Shown here piece by piece: positions 107-8,298 of a DNA stretch of 64,000 nt. How positions within the stretch are numbered: the stretch's first letter is position 1; each line of letters starts with the position of its first letter. The stretch is from Armatimonadota bacterium (GTDB taxonomy: Bacteria > Armatimonadota > Hebobacteria > CAIYQO01): the NCBI GenBank assembly GCA_020060775.1, contig JAGUZN010000220.1:984-64983 (forward strand), read 5' to 3'. The notes under the pieces are model-generated. The model had not been told where the DNA came from and did no database searches. It saw only the letters and a list, made by a program, of their open reading frames with translations. Both the position numbers and the translations under genes were made by a program.

Positions 107-3016
107 ATGATTCAAGCCTGGGTCTTTTCAAAACTGGAACCAGTCAAAGATGACCCGATGGTGGTCGTGCGTGACCCGTTGGGATTGACGGAAGGCATGG
201 AGAACGCATTACATGCCTGGGGTAAAACACACACCTACGCTGTGATCCCTTGTGCGACTAACCTGCTCTTCCGATATAAATATGAAGAAGCACGGGCGGA
301 TGAAACCATTAAGAAAATACTCATCCTTGATCGTACTCCTTTGAGTCGGCGCACACGTCCTGATTATCATCGAGCAGCGGCGCCGTTCTATCCAGATATA
401 TTGGCGCAAACGCGCCCCGAGGCGTGTATCGAACTGGATCTGCGGCAGTTCTTGCGTGAACAAACAAACGATGCGTATTGGCCACAGGAAGTGAATGAGC
501 CACGCCTGGCCCGCCTGCTCATGAAATATCTCGATGGAGCTCTGCGTGCCCATGAGAATCTACGGGCGGCAAGCCCTGATCGTTTCACCGACCAGGATTT
601 AAAAACGATCATCGCTTTTGCGGCTCTCGGTGTACCGGAAGCTGCTTTTAAGAATCTTTCCGCCAGTGAGTATTGGAAGATCGGTCTGCGTGGTCATCAT
701 GAATTGCGCGGGTTGGAGCAGCTCATGCCTGAGATCACCGAGACGATCACCGGCAAACTGAAGAAGGCACCAGCCCCGTTCTGTTGGCTTGCTGATAAAT
801 ATGACCCAGACACGGTGATCCGGGCTTTTTACCTTTCCGTTGTGTTGGCACAGCATGTGACGCACTGGCAAACGCTGCCGGCGAATGTTGATCCGATCTT
901 TGGGCGTATGGGCGGCATCGCCCCCGAGACCTTGCAGGATGCTGCCCCCAAGCTGGTGAGCCTTGATCCGGCACGAGCGCAAAGCGACATTCGCGCGATG
1001 GAAGATAAGTTGACCGTTAAGAATTTGCATTTTCTGCTACTCGAACAGATGCAAATTGAGGCACGGTTCGCTGAGGTGATCGAGAAAGAGCAATACTCGG
1101 AATTATTCCGTTCCCTCTCGCTCATTCTCGCCCTTGATAATCTCTGCTCAACACACCCGACCCAGGAAGCGCAAAAGCGGGTGAGTGAGGCGTTACTGGC
1201 TAAACGTTCACAACGCGCGCTGGTTGACCTTCGCCCTTCAGCGACCTGGAAAATATTACGACAGGCATATCTCCGTGCCGTACGACTTCTCGCCTTGCGT
1301 GGGCAACTTGGCAAATTCGTCAAGGAGCTTGACCAATTGCCGGAAACTACGCAGGTGCTCTATCTGGCGCCCGGTCAAGAAAAAACCGTTGCCTTTCATG
1401 TGAAGCCGGATATTTCACTAGCCACCAATAGTGAGAGAGCTTCAGGGGAGATGCCATGGGCACTTCGGGTGTGCCCGGTATGTTATGAGCGTGGCTTAAT
1501 AGAAGAAATTAGTACGCGATCTGAAAAATTCGGATCGATCCCCGTCTTGGTTAGTTACATATGCGAAAACGGTTGCCAACCACAGAGTGGCGAACGCCTA
1601 CACAACGATCCAGATGACAAAAAGAGAGAGTATTTTAAGAAATATGATGTCGGTAAATTGGCCGAGATAGAAGAAATGGAAATACCATATTGGTATCCGA
1701 GAAATCGCATGATGAATGCCCCTGAAGATCAGGAATGTTGGGGAGTAAAATGGCGCGCTGGAACTAGTAACTTTCGAACTGTCGACGAGTTGTTTACAAA
1801 ACGAAATTTGTGGGCTCTCGCTGTACTCTTCAATGCAGCTTCTCAAGAGCAGACCAGCGATGTGCTTAGGTTTAGACTGGAAGCCATTTTACTAAATTTG
1901 TCTCGTATGCAAGGTAACACTACTGATCCTCGCTTCCCCAATAACATTATTCGAGGGACTTATTATACACCTCAAATTATGCGTGAATACTCAGTTTTGC
2001 CGTGGTATGCCGGTAAGATACGAAATCTAATTGATGGTTATTCTAAATTATACCCTTCATACCAGGGCTTTGGAGAGGTTTGCATTTCTACACAATCTGC
2101 ATGTTCAATGGATGCCATTCCAGATAATTCACTTGATTACATATTCACTGATCCACCGTATGGGGACAAGGTTCAGTATGGAGAACTCAACTTTGTATGG
2201 GAATCATGGATGGGGTGGAATACACTTTGGCATGATGATGAGATCATAATTAATGACGTCCGGGGCAAGACCGAGCTTGATTGGTCTGAAATGATGGAGT
2301 GTGTAATTAAGGAGTGTTACAGAGTCTTAAAGCCTGGTAGATGGCTCACTTTATGCTATCACGACACTTCGGAGGGAACTTGGGCACTTGTCCAGGACCT
2401 GATGAAAAACGCTGGTTTTATAGTGGACGTTTCAGGCAGTACTCTATTTATCGAGACAGAGCAGAAATCGTTCAACCAGCTTACGGCTGATATCGAAGAA
2501 ATGTTCTTTATGGCGCACCGCATCTCAGCGCTAACACACCGGCATCCCAGGAGCCAGATGGCATGCGGTCTCTACTGCATAATGGCAAAAGGCTTGCTGT
2601 ATGGATTGACGCCCGGAGAGGCCTACCGGTTTATGGTCGAACAGGGGCATCGGTGCTACAACGTCACCCCGTTTCAGCAGGAGATGTCCCATTTCGCGCG
2701 CATCCTCTCTGGCGAACTAATCGGTATGCCTATTAACGAGATTGCCTCCAGCGGCTATGTCATACATACGCTGGAGGCCAGTCTGTGGTGCCTGCTCACA
2801 ACAGGCTCATTCGAGGATGCTGTATTGACGGCGGTGAACCTGGGCGACGATACCGATACGACGGGATGCGTTGCCGGCGGGCTTGCTGGCGTGAGTTACG
2901 GAGATCATGCAATTAATGCTACCTGGTTATCAGTTATTGTCCGGTCATCTGATATGCGAGCGCTGTCGCAGCACTTTCTGGCAGTGATACCGCAAGAGAT
3001 CGGTATAGGAGTGTAG
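107..3016 (+). CDS. Large multidomain protein. N-terminal region of about 430 aa is unassigned. Then a Cys-rich Zn-ribbon (CPVCYERG..CENGC), a beta-class amino-methyltransferase domain (N6A/N4C DNA MTase-like), and the C-terminal half of an ADP-ribosylglycohydrolase (ARH) fold.
   Basis: MTase motif IV 'SLDYIFTDPPYG' followed by 'RVLKPGRWLTLCYH', which resembles the AdoMet/FxGxG-region context of beta-class MTases. The C-terminus 'GYVIHTLEASLWCLLTTGSFEDAVLTAVNLGDDTDTTGCVAGGLAGVSYG' matches the conserved C-terminal metal-binding segment of the ARH/DraG family. The MTase segment (about 1500-2500) is visibly AT-richer than the flanking parts of the same ORF. Confidence 0.7.
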   Translation: MIQAWVFSKLEPVKDDPMVVVRDPLGLTEGMENALHAWGKTHTYAVIPCATNLLFRYKYEEARADETIKKILILDRTPLSRRTRPDYHRAAAPFYPDILAQTRPEACIELDLRQFLREQTNDAYWPQEVNEPRLARLLMKYLDGALRAHENLRAASPDRFTDQDLKTIIAFAALGVPEAAFKNLSASEYWKIGLRGHHELRGLEQLMPEITETITGKLKKAPAPFCWLADKYDPDTVIRAFYLSVVLAQHVTHWQTLPANVDPIFGRMGGIAPETLQDAAPKLVSLDPARAQSDIRAMEDKLTVKNLHFLLLEQMQIEARFAEVIEKEQYSELFRSLSLILALDNLCSTHPTQEAQKRVSEALLAKRSQRALVDLRPSATWKILRQAYLRAVRLLALRGQLGKFVKELDQLPETTQVLYLAPGQEKTVAFHVKPDISLATNSERASGEMPWALRVCPVCYERGLIEEISTRSEKFGSIPVLVSYICENGCQPQSGERLHNDPDDKKREYFKKYDVGKLAEIEEMEIPYWYPRNRMMNAPEDQECWGVKWRAGTSNFRTVDELFTKRNLWALAVLFNAASQEQTSDVLRFRLEAILLNLSRMQGNTTDPRFPNNIIRGTYYTPQIMREYSVLPWYAGKIRNLIDGYSKLYPSYQGFGEVCISTQSACSMDAIPDNSLDYIFTDPPYGDKVQYGELNFVWESWMGWNTLWHDDEIIINDVRGKTELDWSEMMECVIKECYRVLKPGRWLTLCYHDTSEGTWALVQDLMKNAGFIVDVSGSTLFIETEQKSFNQLTADIEEMFFMAHRISALTHRHPRSQMACGLYCIMAKGLLYGLTPGEAYRFMVEQGHRCYNVTPFQQEMSHFARILSGELIGMPINEIASSGYVIHTLEASLWCLLTTGSFEDAVLTAVNLGDDTDTTGCVAGGLAGVSYGDHAINATWLSVIVRSSDMRALSQHFLAVIPQEIGIGV

Positions 3017-3314
3017 GTCTGCCTCCGTTGATGTGGAACACTCATCGCTCTTATAGCGACAGCTTGCCCTTATTTATCCGTAGGGGGACGTCAATATCAA
3101 TTACTCGCGCTCGAAGACACTGCTCTGCATATGGTTGAAGATAGGCACGAATCGGTCATTTAGCTAATCCGACAGGCACTATAAACGACGTATCCATTGA
3201 TATTGCGGAGTCTCACGAAATCATTGCTGGTTTTGGACCTTAGGCGTATACTTGCTCTGTTGGGCAAGTAGCGTTTGGGTGCAAGCCATAGTAATCGGCT
3301 AATGGCGCTATTCT

Positions 3315-4388
3315 TTGAAAGGCGTGGAGCAGACCGTGGCAAAGTTGTTCATGAACGGCCTACAGCTAATTCTATCTTCCGATAGCTTCACTGCATACGA
3401 GGCAGAAATGCCCGAAGATGGTAGCTTGCGGAAACTGCGCGACCGATATGGCGACGGGTGGTTTTTCCATCGTCAAGGTAATAAGGTATATGGTTTTCCA
3501 CAAGTCGATCGTCCTACCATCCCATTTGGCACGTCCGTAGCATTAAAATGCCAAGAAAACCTTTCTATGCTAGCTGCGGTAGTCGGTGATATTATAGGAC
3601 GACGTCGATTCGGAGGCCAGGTATTATTCCGTCATCGTGGTGCGGAGTTCATCAGTAGTACAAAGGAACTCATCAGTGATGTCGCCAAACAAATGCCGGA
3701 TCTTCCCGACATAGTCAAGTTATTCAAAGCTTATCCACGTTTTACTTTAGAGGCAAAAGTCCTTGAGCTACGCGATGGCGATGGTGGGATCGGGTTATTC
3801 GTTACGTTGGGAAGCAGGTGGCGTATCGAAGCACCTCTCCACGATCTGTTGAGTAAAGGTATTGACCTTCAAGGTATGTACGTCGTTCGAAGGTATCCCG
3901 AGAAAGGCCAGCGGAGGCTTGTTGGTAGAATCTCCTGCATTGATAAAGGAACCGTCAAATTGCTAGAGTCATTCGACGGTACGGCTGAGATTGCGTGCGA
4001 CGACGTGTGGCTTGAAGGGAATAGAGAAAATTTTGCCTATTGCTTGAAGCACTTACTGAAGGCGCGTTACCTATCATTTGAGACTAAGCGTAGGGAAATA
4101 GAAGACCAGTTATTGTCGGGGCCTAAATTTCAGACAACGATACAAAGCATTGCACAGTCATTTACAAATAAGCCTCCCATGCAACTCACTCCTGATCTCC
4201 AGTGCATTGTTGGCGATATGATTTCCGTGAAAAATTTCGGCGGATACTGCACTGTGCGTGCCGCTTCTCCAGTGCAATGTTGCTATGATGCTGCACGGAC
4301 GCAACGGATGGAGTATCCCTGGAAAGGGATCGAAAATTTGGTCCGTTTAGTCGTGACACCTTTACAAGAAAATCACCGACGATACTAG
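3315..4388 (+). CDS. Hypothetical protein encoded immediately upstream of the short pAgo. It is a candidate pAgo partner (APAZ or N/PAZ-analogous half), but no motif is recognised.
   Basis: 357-aa ORF (TTG/alternative start at 3315, or ATG at 3351). Its stop at 4386-4388 lies 2 nt before the pAgo start. Its size plus the 404-aa MID-PIWI gives about 760 aa, roughly a long pAgo. Confidence 0.5.
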   Translation: MKGVEQTVAKLFMNGLQLILSSDSFTAYEAEMPEDGSLRKLRDRYGDGWFFHRQGNKVYGFPQVDRPTIPFGTSVALKCQENLSMLAAVVGDIIGRRRFGGQVLFRHRGAEFISSTKELISDVAKQMPDLPDIVKLFKAYPRFTLEAKVLELRDGDGGIGLFVTLGSRWRIEAPLHDLLSKGIDLQGMYVVRRYPEKGQRRLVGRISCIDKGTVKLLESFDGTAEIACDDVWLEGNRENFAYCLKHLLKARYLSFETKRREIEDQLLSGPKFQTTIQSIAQSFTNKPPMQLTPDLQCIVGDMISVKNFGGYCTVRAASPVQCCYDAARTQRMEYPWKGIENLVRLVVTPLQENHRRY

Positions 4389-4390
4389 TT

Positions 4391-5605
4391 GTGTTCCCCG
4401 ATAGTGAACAAGGACCTGTTGAACGATTCCTTCGTTCGTTTCGCGACGGGATATCGTCGTCAGCCTTTGCATCTGGCTTTGTCAGGAACTTTTCTCTCGT
4501 CAACTTAAAGATTGAAAAGGTGCGAGTACCCTGGCTGGGGAAAGGGAGTCAGGCTCCTGCGCAAGCGTATAGAAAGGCGATAGATGATTACTTGGCATCC
4601 GCAGATTCGGTGCCAGATGCTGGGATCGTCATTCTCCTAGACGAACATGCCAAACTTCCCGATGCGGTAAACCCGTATCTACATGCTAAATCATCATTGC
4701 TCACGGCAGGTGTCCCGGTCCAGGAACTACGGGTGCCGACTATCAAGCAAGCTGACACATCGCTTTCCTATACCCTGCGTAACATCGCTCTCGCTCTGTA
4801 TGCAAAAATGGGGGGAACCCCATGGACAGTCGACCAGGATATGACGATCAGCGATGAACTGGTGATTGGCATGGGGAGCTGCGCACTCGCAGAGAGCCGT
4901 TTTATAGAGCGTGAAAGATATGTTGGCATCACTACCGTCTTTCGAGGAGATGGCAGCTACCTACTGGGGAACATCTCCAAAGAATGTCCGTACCGTGAAT
5001 ATCCGCAAGTTCTGGAGAGCGAAACTATATCTGTATTGAATGAAATCAAATATCGGAACGGTTGGCGTCCCGGTGATACCGTGCGGATCATATTTCACAC
5101 CTACAAACCATTAAAAAATATCGAGGTAGAAGCGATTGCTGCCAAGTGTGTGCAAGCTATCAGCGGTGAGCAGAATATCGAGTTTGCATTCCTCACGATT
5201 TCTCATGATCACCCTTTTAGACTTTTTGATATCGACCAGCAAGGTATCAAGGGTACGAAAGGCATCTATGTTCCCCAGAGGGGAATTATTATGCAGCTTG
5301 GACGATACACTAGGTTGCTTTGTACAACAGGACCAGAGTTAGTCAAACGTGAAGGATTGCCTTTGCCAGCACCTCTGCTTGTTCATCTGCATCCTGCATC
5401 AACCTACCGTTCATTAGATTACCTAGCTGAACAAGTATTGAAATTTACTGCGCTCTCGTGGCGTTCGACATTGCCTGCGCCGAAACCAGTAACAATCTTT
5501 TACTCTGACCTGATTGCGCAATTCCTGGGTCGCTTACAGCGTATTCCTGATTGGTCTCCGGCAACTCTAAACGCAAAATTACGTGCGAGTCGGTGGTTTC
5601 TATGA
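4391..5605 (+). CDS. Short prokaryotic Argonaute (MID-PIWI), predicted catalytically inactive.
   Basis: PIWI hallmarks: 'NIALALYAKMGGTPW' (K-x-GG-x-PW motif), 'RIIFHTYKP' (counterpart of the 'IIFYRDG' motif, with the Asp lost) and 'AFLTISHDHPFRLF' (counterpart of 'VVQKRHHTRLF'). The first catalytic Asp position reads 'GMGSC' instead of 'GADVxH', so the DEDX tetrad is incomplete. The N-terminal 'NPYLHAK..VPVQEL' resembles the Y-K-Q 5'-end binding residues of a MID domain. Confidence 0.72.
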   Translation: MFPDSEQGPVERFLRSFRDGISSSAFASGFVRNFSLVNLKIEKVRVPWLGKGSQAPAQAYRKAIDDYLASADSVPDAGIVILLDEHAKLPDAVNPYLHAKSSLLTAGVPVQELRVPTIKQADTSLSYTLRNIALALYAKMGGTPWTVDQDMTISDELVIGMGSCALAESRFIERERYVGITTVFRGDGSYLLGNISKECPYREYPQVLESETISVLNEIKYRNGWRPGDTVRIIFHTYKPLKNIEVEAIAAKCVQAISGEQNIEFAFLTISHDHPFRLFDIDQQGIKGTKGIYVPQRGIIMQLGRYTRLLCTTGPELVKREGLPLPAPLLVHLHPASTYRSLDYLAEQVLKFTALSWRSTLPAPKPVTIFYSDLIAQFLGRLQRIPDWSPATLNAKLRASRWFL

Positions 5606-6843
5606 CGACGTATTTGTCAGGAGTATATGCTCAGCAACTTAGTACCCTAGCGACACATATCGCTGATGATGCAGTGTGGCCATCTCCGTACGCCGGGTTT
5701 CTTTACTATCTGTGTAACAAATACGATCAGCAGTTTCTGGCACCTTTGATTAACCCTTCACCGCCATGTGTTGAGCTCGGGCGGCTTTACGAGGCACCGA
5801 TTCTTGCATCAGCAGGATATTTATTCGCGCTTAACCATCCTGTAGTTCGTGCAAGTTCCGAAGCTTGGCATATTGGGTTTCAACGGCTTGCTGGGCGCGA
5901 TCCCTTCCCAATTGACCGCCAGTCATTCGTATATCGTCCAATAGAACTGCTTGGTATTACACTTGGAGTGAAGCACTGCCCTAATACTACGCAGGCAGAG
6001 ATTGATTGGCTTATAAATGTGCTACAGAGTGCTGAAAGCCGGCTGAAGAGTGCGTCCTGTTGGCAGTACCTGCTTGGTATGTATGCTTCACGACTACTGG
6101 GTAATTCCTGGGCAAAGCGTTCCTGGGATATTGGGCAATTCCCTGTGGATGACTTGAGCATCGTGGTATGGCTGTGCGCCAATACTCCTGATTTAGCGTT
6201 TGAATTCGGTGTAGACCAATTATACAAGCAAGCAGAGGAATCATTACTGACCCAGTGTGCAAAAACGGAGGTTACCATCCCAGATCCCGCACGTGCTGCA
6301 ATACTCTACTCTAGTCTTGACCGAGCTGTGAGCCGGAGTATTGAATCAGAGCACGAGCGCAATTGGCAAATAGGCCGTGATCAAGCCGATGCCCTCTCAA
6401 TCGTTATCACGTTATGCCGTAGATTTGATTTGTGTGTAAGGCAACTCCAACGTAGGCAGCGAAGTCGCAATCCTTTCACTGTACAAGATGAGTATGATGT
6501 CCAAGACCTGATGCATGCTTTGTTGAAGTTACACTTTGATGATGTTCGTCCCGAGGAGTGGACACCGTCATATGCTGGCAACGCATCACGCGTCGATTTT
6601 TTGCTTAAACGAGAGATGATCGTTGTTGAGGTAAAGATGACTCGCGATAGCCTAGCTCAACGTGAGCTAGCGGACCAATTAATTATTGATAAAGAGCGGT
6701 ATCGATCACATTCTGACTGCCGTATACTGGTGTGTTTTGTTTATGATCCGGAGCATCGCTGCACGAACCCGGCAGCATTGGAGAATGACCTCAGCGAGCA
6801 GATCGGTCTATTTAGGGTTGAAGCAATCGTCTCACCTGCGTAG
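5602..6843 (+). CDS. PD-(D/E)xK nuclease-like protein (restriction-endonuclease fold at the C-terminus). Candidate effector of the pAgo operon.
   Basis: Its ATG (5602-5604) overlaps the pAgo stop codon (TGA at 5603-5605) in an ATGA arrangement. C-terminal 'EYDVQDL..SRVDFLLKREMIVVEVK' gives an E...D...E-x-K arrangement typical of Mrr/DUF4365-like nucleases. Confidence 0.55.
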   Translation: MTTYLSGVYAQQLSTLATHIADDAVWPSPYAGFLYYLCNKYDQQFLAPLINPSPPCVELGRLYEAPILASAGYLFALNHPVVRASSEAWHIGFQRLAGRDPFPIDRQSFVYRPIELLGITLGVKHCPNTTQAEIDWLINVLQSAESRLKSASCWQYLLGMYASRLLGNSWAKRSWDIGQFPVDDLSIVVWLCANTPDLAFEFGVDQLYKQAEESLLTQCAKTEVTIPDPARAAILYSSLDRAVSRSIESEHERNWQIGRDQADALSIVITLCRRFDLCVRQLQRRQRSRNPFTVQDEYDVQDLMHALLKLHFDDVRPEEWTPSYAGNASRVDFLLKREMIVVEVKMTRDSLAQRELADQLIIDKERYRSHSDCRILVCFVYDPEHRCTNPAALENDLSEQIGLFRVEAIVSPA

Positions 6844-7290
6844 GTCTGCGGAGCAATGTTATGCAAATGCAATTCGTCGTACATCCGAGAACGTATGAGA
6901 TCAACGGCTATTTCTTTCAAGTGCTGTCATGTTGCGCGTTGACTGATGGGCAGGCAGCTAATGCTGCCATGCATTTTTATCAAACACATAAGCTAAAGAA
7001 GAAAGACAAAGGAAAATTAATTAAAGTCATAACGAGCCCTGATACGGATACTGCAGGAATCTTTGGGTAGCACGGCTACCTATGACTACAGATACGCCAA
7101 CCTAAGTTATGCAACGTGATCTGAAGGAAGCATTCAGCAGTATTACCAGGTTACTCCTACATGAGCGTGAGGAGTATTCATTAGGTCGGTCCAAAGACCG
7201 TGCTGATATTTTAAGCGCAGGGTCTCCAATTCCCTCATGGCAGCCCCTGCGACCATTACCTATGTGGATGGTCCTTCACTTATTTGATAC

Positions 7291-8298
7291 TTACAGATCA
7301 AGCAATGATGCCGAATTCTCTTGAAACAACACCCCCATGCGGATATACCGCTGCACCATCACATTCGACCGATGACCGGTCTGCTGCATGATAGATCGCT
7401 CGTTTGCACCTGCACGGGCGGCGGCGGTGCAGTGGCCGGCGCGCAGGGAGTGACCGCTGTAGCGTTTCGGATCAAGGCCGATCTCTTTCACCATCTTCTT
7501 GATGAGATTGGCGACGGCACGATCCGATAAGCGCTCACTGCAGAGTTTGTCATGACGGTTGATGCCGCGGAAGAGGGCGCCGCCGGTAATCCCGCTGGAT
7601 TCCAGCCAGGATTTCAAGGCACGCACTGGACAGGTTTCTTCATGAGTGCCAAATGGTATGGCGACCCAACGCCCTTCACCTTCTTGATCTGTTTTTGATC
7701 GGCGGAGGCAGATAACGACTCCTTCCTCCCTGAAGGTCAGGTCGGCGACATCAAAGGCGACCAACTCGGAGCGCCGGAAGGCGCCAGCGTATCCCAGGAG
7801 TAGCAGTGCGCGGTCCCGCCGGCCTTTCAATGTCTCTGGTAATACCGCCATGATGCGTCTCATGTCATCGGTCATCAAGGCATCGACCTGGCGGGCGGTG
7901 ACGCCGATCCGCCGGCGAATGCCGCGCATGACGGCCCGCACGGCGGCGTGTTGGGTGGGGGAGGGGTGGCCAGCGTGTTGGTGGATGGCGCTGATGGCGG
8001 CCATATAGCGCGAGAGCGTGCTGTACTTGTGGTCGGTCGTCGCCATCGCCGTCATGTAGCAGGCAATCGTCTCAGGGCTGGCCGGCATCGACGGCAAGTG
8101 GTATTGTTCGCACCAGGCCACGAACTGCTGCCAATCCCGCTCGTAGGCCTCCCGCGTGTGTTGCGAGATACCTTCCTCGATGAACTCCTGGACTTGCTCG
8201 ATCAGTGGAACGAGAAGGGTGTGATCGGGGTGCTGGTTGGCACTGGGCCCGATCCGGGCAGGCAGTGATGCTGGCTGGGTGATGGGAGCCTGATCCAT
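7291..8298 (-). CDS. Tyrosine site-specific recombinase (phage-type integrase).
   Basis: C-terminal catalytic box 'HSLRAGHCTAAARAGANERSIMQQTGHRSNVMVQRYI' (R..H-x-x-R...Y). The N-terminal SAM-like core-binding region is present. Confidence 0.85.
   Translation of the reverse strand: MDQAPITQPASLPARIGPSANQHPDHTLLVPLIEQVQEFIEEGISQHTREAYERDWQQFVAWCEQYHLPSMPASPETIACYMTAMATTDHKYSTLSRYMAAISAIHQHAGHPSPTQHAAVRAVMRGIRRRIGVTARQVDALMTDDMRRIMAVLPETLKGRRDRALLLLGYAGAFRRSELVAFDVADLTFREEGVVICLRRSKTDQEGEGRWVAIPFGTHEETCPVRALKSWLESSGITGGALFRGINRHDKLCSERLSDRAVANLIKKMVKEIGLDPKRYSGHSLRAGHCTAAARAGANERSIMQQTGHRSNVMVQRYIRMGVLFQENSASLLDL

Follow-up and report, generated by a model that had tools for sequence, protein, structure and literature searches.

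What kind of defence system is encoded by three adjoining open reading frames (ORFs) that, in the genome of an Armatimonadota bacterium, seem to constitute a new type of prokaryotic Argonaute (pAgo) operon? The ORFs in question lie on the + strand of contig JAGUZN010000220.1 (assembly GCA_020060775.1), of which positions 984 to 64,983, a stretch of 64,000 nucleotides (nt) termed here the window, were analysed; they are referred to below as ORF1, ORF2 and ORF3 (Table 1). A first-pass annotation, made from the sequence alone, interpreted them as a translationally coupled three-gene operon built around a short, inactive pAgo (ORF2), together with an upstream protein that might be the other half of a split pAgo (ORF1) and a separately encoded PD-(D/E)xK nuclease (ORF3), and regarded this arrangement as absent from the characterised pAgo systems. 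All three ORFs are where that annotation put them, and the spacing between them, the ATGA overlap and the quoted motifs (YAKMGGTPW, GMGSC, RIIFH and SHDHPFRLF, all within ORF2) are confirmed in the sequence. The interpretation, however, changes: judging from sequence comparison, ORF1 and ORF2 are the N-terminal and MID-PIWI halves of one frameshifted long pAgo gene, and the locus is very probably a two-gene, BPAN-type defence operon, in which an inactive long-B pAgo is followed by a bAgaN effector.

BPAN systems consist of a long-B pAgo and a downstream nuclease, and in them RNA-guided recognition of target DNA leads to collateral degradation of DNA and to abortive infection; a nuclease gene also lies downstream of RsAgo, from Rhodobacter sphaeroides (Song et al. 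2023, PMC10620215). Split long-B pAgos are likewise real and have arisen repeatedly: in these an N-subunit is encoded upstream and a MID-PIWI subunit downstream, followed by a helical effector with a transmembrane, TIR, HEPN or PD-(D/E)xK domain (Manakova et al. 2024, PMC10954474). The arrangement at this locus is therefore not uncharacterised, inasmuch as both BPAN (PMC10620215; PMC13535254) and the combination of a split long-B pAgo with a helical-PD-(D/E)xK effector (PMC10954474) had already been described.

One Argonaute gene in two reading frames

The first-pass annotation overlooked that, relative to ORF1, ORF2 is read in the -1 frame. This frame is open well upstream of the GTG at 4391, where it encodes conserved pAgo sequence (...RKFGPFSRDTFTRKSPTILVVFPDSEQG). 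ORF1 has no match in Pfam; against the PADLOC pAgo_II model PDLC02379 (724 positions) it covers model positions 2-314 (E 6e-45) and ORF2 covers positions 334-724 (E 2e-156), so that the hidden Markov model (HMM) check proposed with the annotation yields a PIWI match in ORF2 and an N-terminal long-pAgo match in ORF1. Inserting one A into the A-run at 4333-4336, to give GGG ATC GAA AA[A] TTT GGT, creates a single ORF of 763 amino acids (aa) with no other stop. Residues 11-763 of this restored protein align with residues 23-778 of RsAgo, which serves as the reference for long-B pAgos (PDB 5AWH; E 2.6e-201), without large gaps, and at the junction without any gap, YPWKGIEKFGPFSRDTFTRKSPTILVVFPDSEQG standing against YAWRGLSQFGPFDRPSFANRSPRILVVYPSSTQG; the restored protein also aligns with EcAgo of the Escherichia coli BPAN complex (23wq_f; E 5.5e-83). 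ORF1 residues 342-357 are left unaligned by the pAgo model and are homologous to nothing.

A large protein collection contains 134 homologues of the restored protein, the best of which are 53-54% identical to it. Among the 120 matches listed of these 134, nearly all are single proteins of about 730-800 aa, and the few that are shorter are mostly encoded on contigs of less than 8 kb; in the 23 related genomic loci that were retrieved, each complete pAgo gene forms one contiguous high-scoring segment pair or open frame. At the break the homologues share the consensus W.G(I/L)(E/D)(K/R)(Y/F)GPFSR(D/E)TF..K(K/R)SP.ILVVFPD, with which the window agrees after frame correction, and in a related Chloroflexota locus (L012) the codons at this point read GGG ATC GAG AAA TAC GGT. 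Given the window's own sequence here, loss of one A from GAA AAA TTT is the best explanation. Between the break and the GTG, 18 stranded codons encode the FGPFSRDTF..KSP.ILV segment, and 14 of them match the family consensus; since they are still so near to it, the lesion is either recent, or not real, or bypassed.

The position of the break within the fold was examined using an AlphaFold2 model of the -1-frame product from F342 onward (mean predicted local distance difference test score, pLDDT, 81). In this model the first strand of the MID domain comprises residues 15-21 (TILVVFP, pLDDT ~93) and starts 14 residues beyond the A-run deletion, and GTG 4391 corresponds to residue 19--that is, to a position inside this strand (beta1). 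Translation beginning at the GTG would therefore give a protein devoid of the conserved GPF motif and of the greater part of the first MID strand. Moreover, the -1 frame offers no earlier start codon between its preceding stop and this GTG, so that the 2-nt spacing between TAG and GTG is incidental. What is seen here is a frameshift in a single ancestral gene and not an evolved three-gene operon: there are two genes, the first of which has a broken reading frame. Hence the suggestion that the 357 and 404 aa are the two halves of a long pAgo is upheld, both by the shared HMM and by RsAgo, whereas the suggestion that the split is an evolved arrangement gives way to a 1-nt frameshift.

An Argonaute assigned to the long-B class and predicted to be inactive

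Long-B pAgos have a long N-L1-PAZ*-L2-MID-PIWI architecture with a reduced PAZ domain, a substituted DEDX tetrad (PIWI*) and a YK-type MID domain (Ryazansky et al. 2018, PMC6299218). This architecture is found at full length in the window once the one base is restored; as deposited, it is spread over two frames. That the PIWI domain of ORF2 is dead, as annotated, is borne out by a Pfam Piwi match (E 4e-17) in which the catalytic residues are replaced: G521 (VIGMGSC, fused-protein numbering) aligns with RsAgo G529 at the position of the first catalytic Asp, and RIIFH and SHDHPF stand in place of the RDG and RHH motifs. The 5'-phosphate pocket of the MID domain is of the YK type, with Y455, K459, Q470 and K498 aligned to the RsAgo pocket residues Y463, K467, Q478 and K506, and the C-terminal SRWFL is conserved. 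Among solved structures, RsAgo (673 bits) and EcAgo (282 bits), both of them long-B, are matched far better than long-A Agos (at most 28 bits), this being a comparison of scores and not a tree. The pAgo is assigned on these grounds to the RsAgo-like long-B class and is predicted to be catalytically inactive.

It is consequently not the short pAgo for which it had been taken, an assignment contradicted both by the HMM and by the full-length alignment to RsAgo. A short-pAgo system of a new type, comprising an APAZ-less 357-aa partner and a separately encoded nuclease, is what ORF2 would suggest if viewed alone, because it comprises only MID and PIWI with a dead active site. This possibility can be virtually dismissed: it is refuted by the identity of ORF1 as the N-terminal half of the same long-B HMM and of RsAgo, and ORF2 itself scores 520 bits with pAgo_II versus at most 60 bits with the pAgo_I (short-pAgo) models, its best matches being full-length long-B pAgos. 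Nor did Pfam and PADLOC searches of the ORFs at the locus find a TIR, Sir2 or DUF4365 domain or an APAZ-fusion partner, by which a short-pAgo system would be recognised.

The downstream effector

The annotation of ORF3 as a PD-(D/E)xK nuclease gene, the start of which overlaps the pAgo stop, stands: the protein matches the Pfam REase_DpnII-MboI PD-(D/E)xK domain (E 2e-51) and is classified by PADLOC as Aga_Helical-REase, Class II (E 1.7e-74). In its AlphaFold2 model (pLDDT 87) an all-helical N-terminal region (residues 2-283) precedes an alpha/beta C-terminal region (residues 297-411) corresponding to the PD-(D/E)xK nuclease, and NCBI/JGI annotation includes a 413-aa protein identical to it. 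The first-pass annotation had named, as a finding that would speak against it, lack of conservation of the nuclease beside homologous pAgos; in fact, 15 related loci have a homologue directly after the pAgo gene, with the (A/G)TGA overlap likewise present.

Used alone in a phmmer search of PDB sequences, the effector finds no match; EcbAgaN, the effector of the E. coli system, was reached only through a family profile constructed from the window protein and eight homologues from related loci. This profile matches EcbAgaN (PDB 23wq chain 1) at residues 258-383, that is, over the nuclease domain only (E 6e-19), with the RxDxxL...EVK residues aligned. D lies 11 residues before EVK, as it does in EcbAgaN, whose residues D298/E309-V310-K311 are needed for DNase activity and defence (PMC13535254). 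A Foldseek search of the effector model against the PDB (to April 2026, seemingly without 23wq) gave no match at E <0.1 and is uninformative on the helical domain. The gene is intact, and its product is predicted to be an effector of the bAgaN type, with an N-terminal helical domain and a C-terminal PD-(D/E)xK DNase.

A probable BPAN-type operon with a seemingly broken sensor

The locus has a long-B pAgo gene followed directly, within one operon, by a bAgaN gene (ATGA overlap, 5602-5605), and this gene encodes a helical domain joined to a PD-(D/E)xK domain with D-EVK, as is expected of a BPAN system. What the deposited sequence does not contain is an intact, expressible pAgo sensor, since no single ORF encodes the pAgo.

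The activated EcAgo-EcbAgaN complex has an 8:8 structure, in which the helical N-domain both engages the pAgo and, prior to activation, autoinhibits the nuclease (Liu et al. 2026, PMC13535254). By analogy with this E. coli system, the pAgo of an intact copy of the window's operon would load 5'-phosphorylated small RNA guides by means of its YK-type MID pocket; the guided pAgo would then recognise complementary invader DNA and recruit autoinhibited bAgaN dimers by their helical domains; and higher-order assembly (8:8 in EcBPAN) would switch on indiscriminate DNA degradation, thereby killing the infected cell. In the deposited sequence, the single-base deletion in the A-run at 4333-4336 would terminate frame 0 after 16 junk codons, leaving the rest of the pAgo to be read solely from the GTG that falls within the first MID beta-strand and giving the gene the appearance of an unrecognised 357-aa protein plus a 404-aa 'short pAgo'. 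As read from its frames, the sensor is most likely non-functional, a recently inactivated copy within a rearranged island of low guanine-plus-cytosine (GC) content.

Possible causes of the break

Given the BPAN identity of the locus, the chances that the break is a real, recent inactivating deletion are put at about even. Decay is supported by the condition of the neighbouring 969-aa ORF, which is also damaged, and by the foreign composition of the island (both described below). Several observations nevertheless weigh against the interpretation of the locus as a decayed BPAN operon. From the contig sequence, a real deletion is indistinguishable from a homopolymer miscall of A5 as A4. Both halves are perfectly preserved apart from the missing base, with no second lesion and with all key residues kept, and such preservation is as compatible with a very recent mutation as with a sequencing error or a gene still in use. 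No relative of more than 54% identity was found that would show the ancestral nucleotides directly. The break is near the domain boundary at which natural split pAgos are divided, and some residual two-piece function may persist. Finally, the N-terminal helical domain of the effector was matched to that of EcbAgaN by neither sequence nor fold search.

Were the break a sequencing or assembly error, the organism would have A5 and a normal, single-chain long-B pAgo, and the deposited contig would be one A short. This is rather doubtful, though it has points in its favour: the lesion is a 1-nt change in homopolymer length, the commonest kind of base-calling error, and within 2.3 kb there is no second lesion, the functional residues all being kept and the effector being intact. 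On the other hand, consensus errors are less to be expected, when coverage is normal, in a run as short as four to five bases, and the degeneracy of the adjacent gene makes decay within the island plausible. Nor does the assembly look riddled with indels, in that 20 other window genes, when checked, showed ordinary domain matches and no sign of splitting (7 of them being without a family match); leuS (871 aa), the SMC gene (1190 aa) and the T2SSE gene are among the unsplit genes of the window. A second copy of the sequence, from which the number of As might be read, was found neither by exact-protein look-ups nor by blastn of 3000-7100 against plasmids, and neither the A4 nor the A5 form of the junction turned up when metagenome contigs were scanned for exact matches to both. 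If instead the break is real, it might have created a functional new split, in which the 357-aa N-L1-PAZ*-L2 protein and a MID-PIWI protein started at GTG 4391 form a heterodimer that, like fAfAgo, controls the nuclease; of the ideas in the first-pass annotation, this is the version that can best be defended. Split long-B pAgos do form working heterodimers (PMC10954474), the break is close to their natural boundary, and 2 nt between stop and GTG would permit termination-reinitiation; yet this, too, is improbable. An evolved split consists of two complete subunits with starts of their own and is conserved among relatives. Here neither product contains the conserved GPF motif or the greater part of beta1, the N-fragment carries a 16-residue junk tail, the GTG lies inside beta1, is preceded by no Shine-Dalgarno sequence and is simply the first start codon that the -1 frame offers after a stop, and the stranded codons, with 14 of 18 at consensus, have not long been free to drift. 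Furthermore, no split between N-half and MID-PIWI occurs in the 23 related loci or the 120 listed homologues, and the only related pAgo gene in two pieces (at locus L022) has its break within PIWI.

A further possibility is programmed -1 ribosomal frameshifting at A_AAT_TTG (4334-4340), by which full-length pAgo (...KGIENLGPFSR...) and the 357-aa fragment would be made in a fixed proportion. The site does have the formal X_XXY_YYZ form in frame 0, ORF2 is exactly in the -1 frame, and the product would be as long as the homologues; but loss of an A from GAA-AAA-TTT creates the heptamer automatically, so that its presence is not independent evidence. There is no stable downstream RNA structure beyond that of shuffled controls (z -0.06 and -0.83), no well-placed upstream Shine-Dalgarno-like element and no homologue frameshifted here, so that the conserved combination of slippery heptamer and stimulatory element that marks a programmed site is lacking, and this mechanism must be considered very improbable indeed. 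Phase variation or transcriptional slippage at the A-run was set aside, the run of 4-5 bases being too short; known contingency tracts are far longer than this. Taken as a whole, there is only a slim chance that the frameshift is real and that the locus nonetheless works, with bAgaN still licensed either by the N-fragment plus a re-initiated MID-PIWI protein or by small amounts of full-length pAgo made through slippage.

Features of the locus and its surroundings

The features discussed above are collected, together with candidate expression signals, in Table 1. The pAgo gene likely starts at GTG 3336 rather than at TTG 3315, to judge from the GGAG preceding the former and from the alignments of homologues, which begin at residues 8-13 of the TTG-3315 ORF. 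The region upstream of the gene contains fewer promoter-like sites than do its shuffles, so that the one tabulated is a mere candidate. Directly 3' of the effector gene, a 69-aa ORF (6861..7070, +) that encloses the terminator-like hairpin has no homologues and no family match, and is more likely the 3' untranslated region of the operon than a gene.

Table 1. Positions, within the window, of the reading frames, the break, predicted catalytic residues and candidate signals
Feature	Position	Strand	Remarks
Candidate promoter-like site TTGATA-16-AATCAT	3197..3224	+	Weak, consensus match only; in the 298-nt gap 5' of the pAgo gene
ORF1	3315..4388	+	357 aa; TTG start; TAG stop at 4386-4388
pAgo 5' part, frame 0	3315..4337	+	N, L1, PAZ*, L2; fused-protein residues 1-341; aligns to RsAgo (5AWH) 23-~350
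Likely true pAgo start, GTG 3336	3326..3338	+	GGAG at 3326-3329, 6-nt spacer, in frame
Frameshift site AAAATTT	4333..4339	+	One A short of the family codons GA(A/G) AAA T(T/A)(T/C); frame 0 reads A_AAT_TTG at 4334-4340
pAgo 3' part, -1 frame	4337..5605	+	MID and predicted inactive PIWI; 4337-4390 encode conserved FGPFSRDTFTRKSPTILV 5' of GTG 4391
Out-of-frame tail of the 357-aa ORF	4338..4388	+	16 junk codons, LVRLVVTPLQENHRRY, then TAG; consequence of the frameshift
ORF2	4391..5605	+	404 aa; GTG start 2 nt after the ORF1 TAG
ORF3 (effector)	5602..6843	+	413 aa; ATG at 5602 within ATGA, overlapping the ORF2 stop at 5603-5605
Predicted catalytic D332	6595-6597	+	Invariant or nearly so among homologues
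Predicted catalytic E343, V344, K345	6628-6636	+	Invariant or nearly so; D-EVK motif intact
Terminator-like hairpin GGCAGCTAATGCTGCC with T-run	6953..6977	+	Pattern match only; 110 nt 3' of the effector stop; candidate operon end

The operon is situated within a low-GC stretch at about 1500-7200 (0.40-0.52; about 0.48 for the island), as opposed to 0.58-0.65 (about 0.60) for the flanking chromosome-like DNA, which carries leuS, smc and the T2SSE ATPase gene. Just downstream, on the opposite strand, is a gene for a XerD-like tyrosine recombinase (335 aa; 7291..8298, -; GC ~0.6). A scan of the window for tRNA genes found none, and no att-like island boundary was identified.

Upstream of the operon, the 969-aa ORF (107..3016, +), hypothetical according to its NCBI/JGI annotation, is a three-module mosaic, each module being matched by different families, with no match spanning the joints. 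Residues 1-410 match the N-termini of proteins of ~970 aa; residues 450-796 match the middle of PglX/DUF1156-like DNA methyltransferases of 850-930 aa, the last ~290 residues of which are missing; and residues 794-961 match the C-terminal half only of ADP-ribosylglycohydrolases. GC content steps from 0.53 to 0.42 to 0.54 at the joints. This ORF is probably a rearrangement scar that fuses gene fragments in frame.

Seemingly damaged relatives and other effector types

Apparent damage is also observed at several of the related loci. In a Nostoc metagenome-assembled genome (MAG) the effector is in two frames (L013, 1277-2216); in a Coleofasciculus MAG it is cut to 189 aa (L005, 8307-8876); and in a Bacteroidetes MAG it is the pAgo that is spread over two frames (L022, 102-1143). 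Such copies may point to errors in MAG assembly or to a toxic system that is often inactivated.

A different kind of variation occurs among cyanobacterial relatives, where the gene 3' of the pAgo keeps the helical N-domain of bAgaN (33-34% identity to residues 1-313 of the window effector) but not the REase domain. The loci in question are L004 (8328-10088; OZ248343.1, plasmid 1 of a Rivularia sp. MAG) and, from Nostoc/Nostocales, L001 (8307-9755), L002 and L008; their pAgos are 51-54% identical to that of the window. In place of the REase, the L004 protein has a CHAT caspase-like protease domain (Pfam PF12770, E 7.8e-11; HFCGHG...LNACYS), and those of the Nostoc loci have an unrecognised tail of ~190 aa. 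A protease or CHAT effector for a long-B pAgo is absent from the effectors listed in PMC10620215 and PMC10954474, and a full-text search combining CHAT with pAgo returned nothing relevant.

Implications

The main value of this analysis is as a correction: what in an ORF-only view is a new, three-gene short-pAgo system becomes a member of the BPAN family with a one-base frameshift, probably a new but broken member. The correction extends to protein databases, since in public annotation (NCBI and JGI, for a contig of 65,141 nt) the 404-aa MID-PIWI fragment appears as an ordinary protein, while the N-terminal fragment was not found there under any of three tested start codons. The 404-aa record may thus be counted as a short or truncated pAgo in censuses of protein records, from which the error can spread. 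More generally, pairs consisting of a 'short pAgo' and an unrecognised upstream protein need to be checked for frame continuity before being called new.

If the frameshift is real, the locus would exemplify a toxic abortive-infection system that has been switched off at its sensor while the nuclease remains intact; if, in addition, the locus still works, it would provide a snapshot of how a split or short pAgo originates, namely by loss of a single base close to the boundary between L2 and MID. Real potential for novelty lies solely with the helical-CHAT effector beside cyanobacterial long-B pAgos.

Comparison with known systems

Among individual pAgos, that of the window most resembles RsAgo (PDB 5AWH/6D8x), with which it shares the GMG glycine in place of the first Asp, the Y-K-Q-K pocket, the SRWFL end, a reduced PAZ domain and an adjacent downstream nuclease. 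It differs from RsAgo in that its gene is interrupted by a 1-nt deletion, in its host and island context and, by manual mapping, at the Glu-finger, where RsAgo E569 aligns with R561, with E562 adjacent.

As a system, the locus resembles EcBPAN (EcAgo plus EcbAgaN), in which an inactive long-B pAgo likewise precedes a helical effector with a PD-(D/E)xK domain and D-x11-EVK; by homology, an intact form of the window system would be expected to act as an RNA-guided, DNA-triggered collateral DNase of the EcBPAN type and to cause abortive infection. It differs from EcBPAN, however, in that its pAgo is frameshifted and resembles RsAgo far more than EcAgo, and in that the helical domain of its effector has no detectable sequence similarity to that of EcbAgaN.

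The split long-B pAgos (fAfAgo, that is, AfAgo-N plus AfAgo, and the pair from Streptomyces sp. P3) are similar in having their halves on adjacent ORFs, a helical-toxic effector downstream and a location within a low-GC island. Natural MID-PIWI subunits such as AfAgo presumably keep the GPY/GPF motif and the first MID strand. In the window, by contrast, the GPF and first-strand residues are out of frame, and none of its relatives is split at this point. The N-subunit gene of A. fulgidus DSM4304 itself has a 2-bp deletion (PMC10954474).

With SPARTA, SPARSA and SPARDA the window system shares an inactive PIWI domain and, by analogy, guide-dependent activation of a toxic effector with abortive infection as the outcome. 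Those systems, however, pair a pAgo consisting of MID and PIWI only with an APAZ domain fused to TIR, Sir2 or DUF4365/HNH, whereas in the window N-L1-PAZ*-L2 belongs to the pAgo gene itself and the effector is a separate helical-REase.

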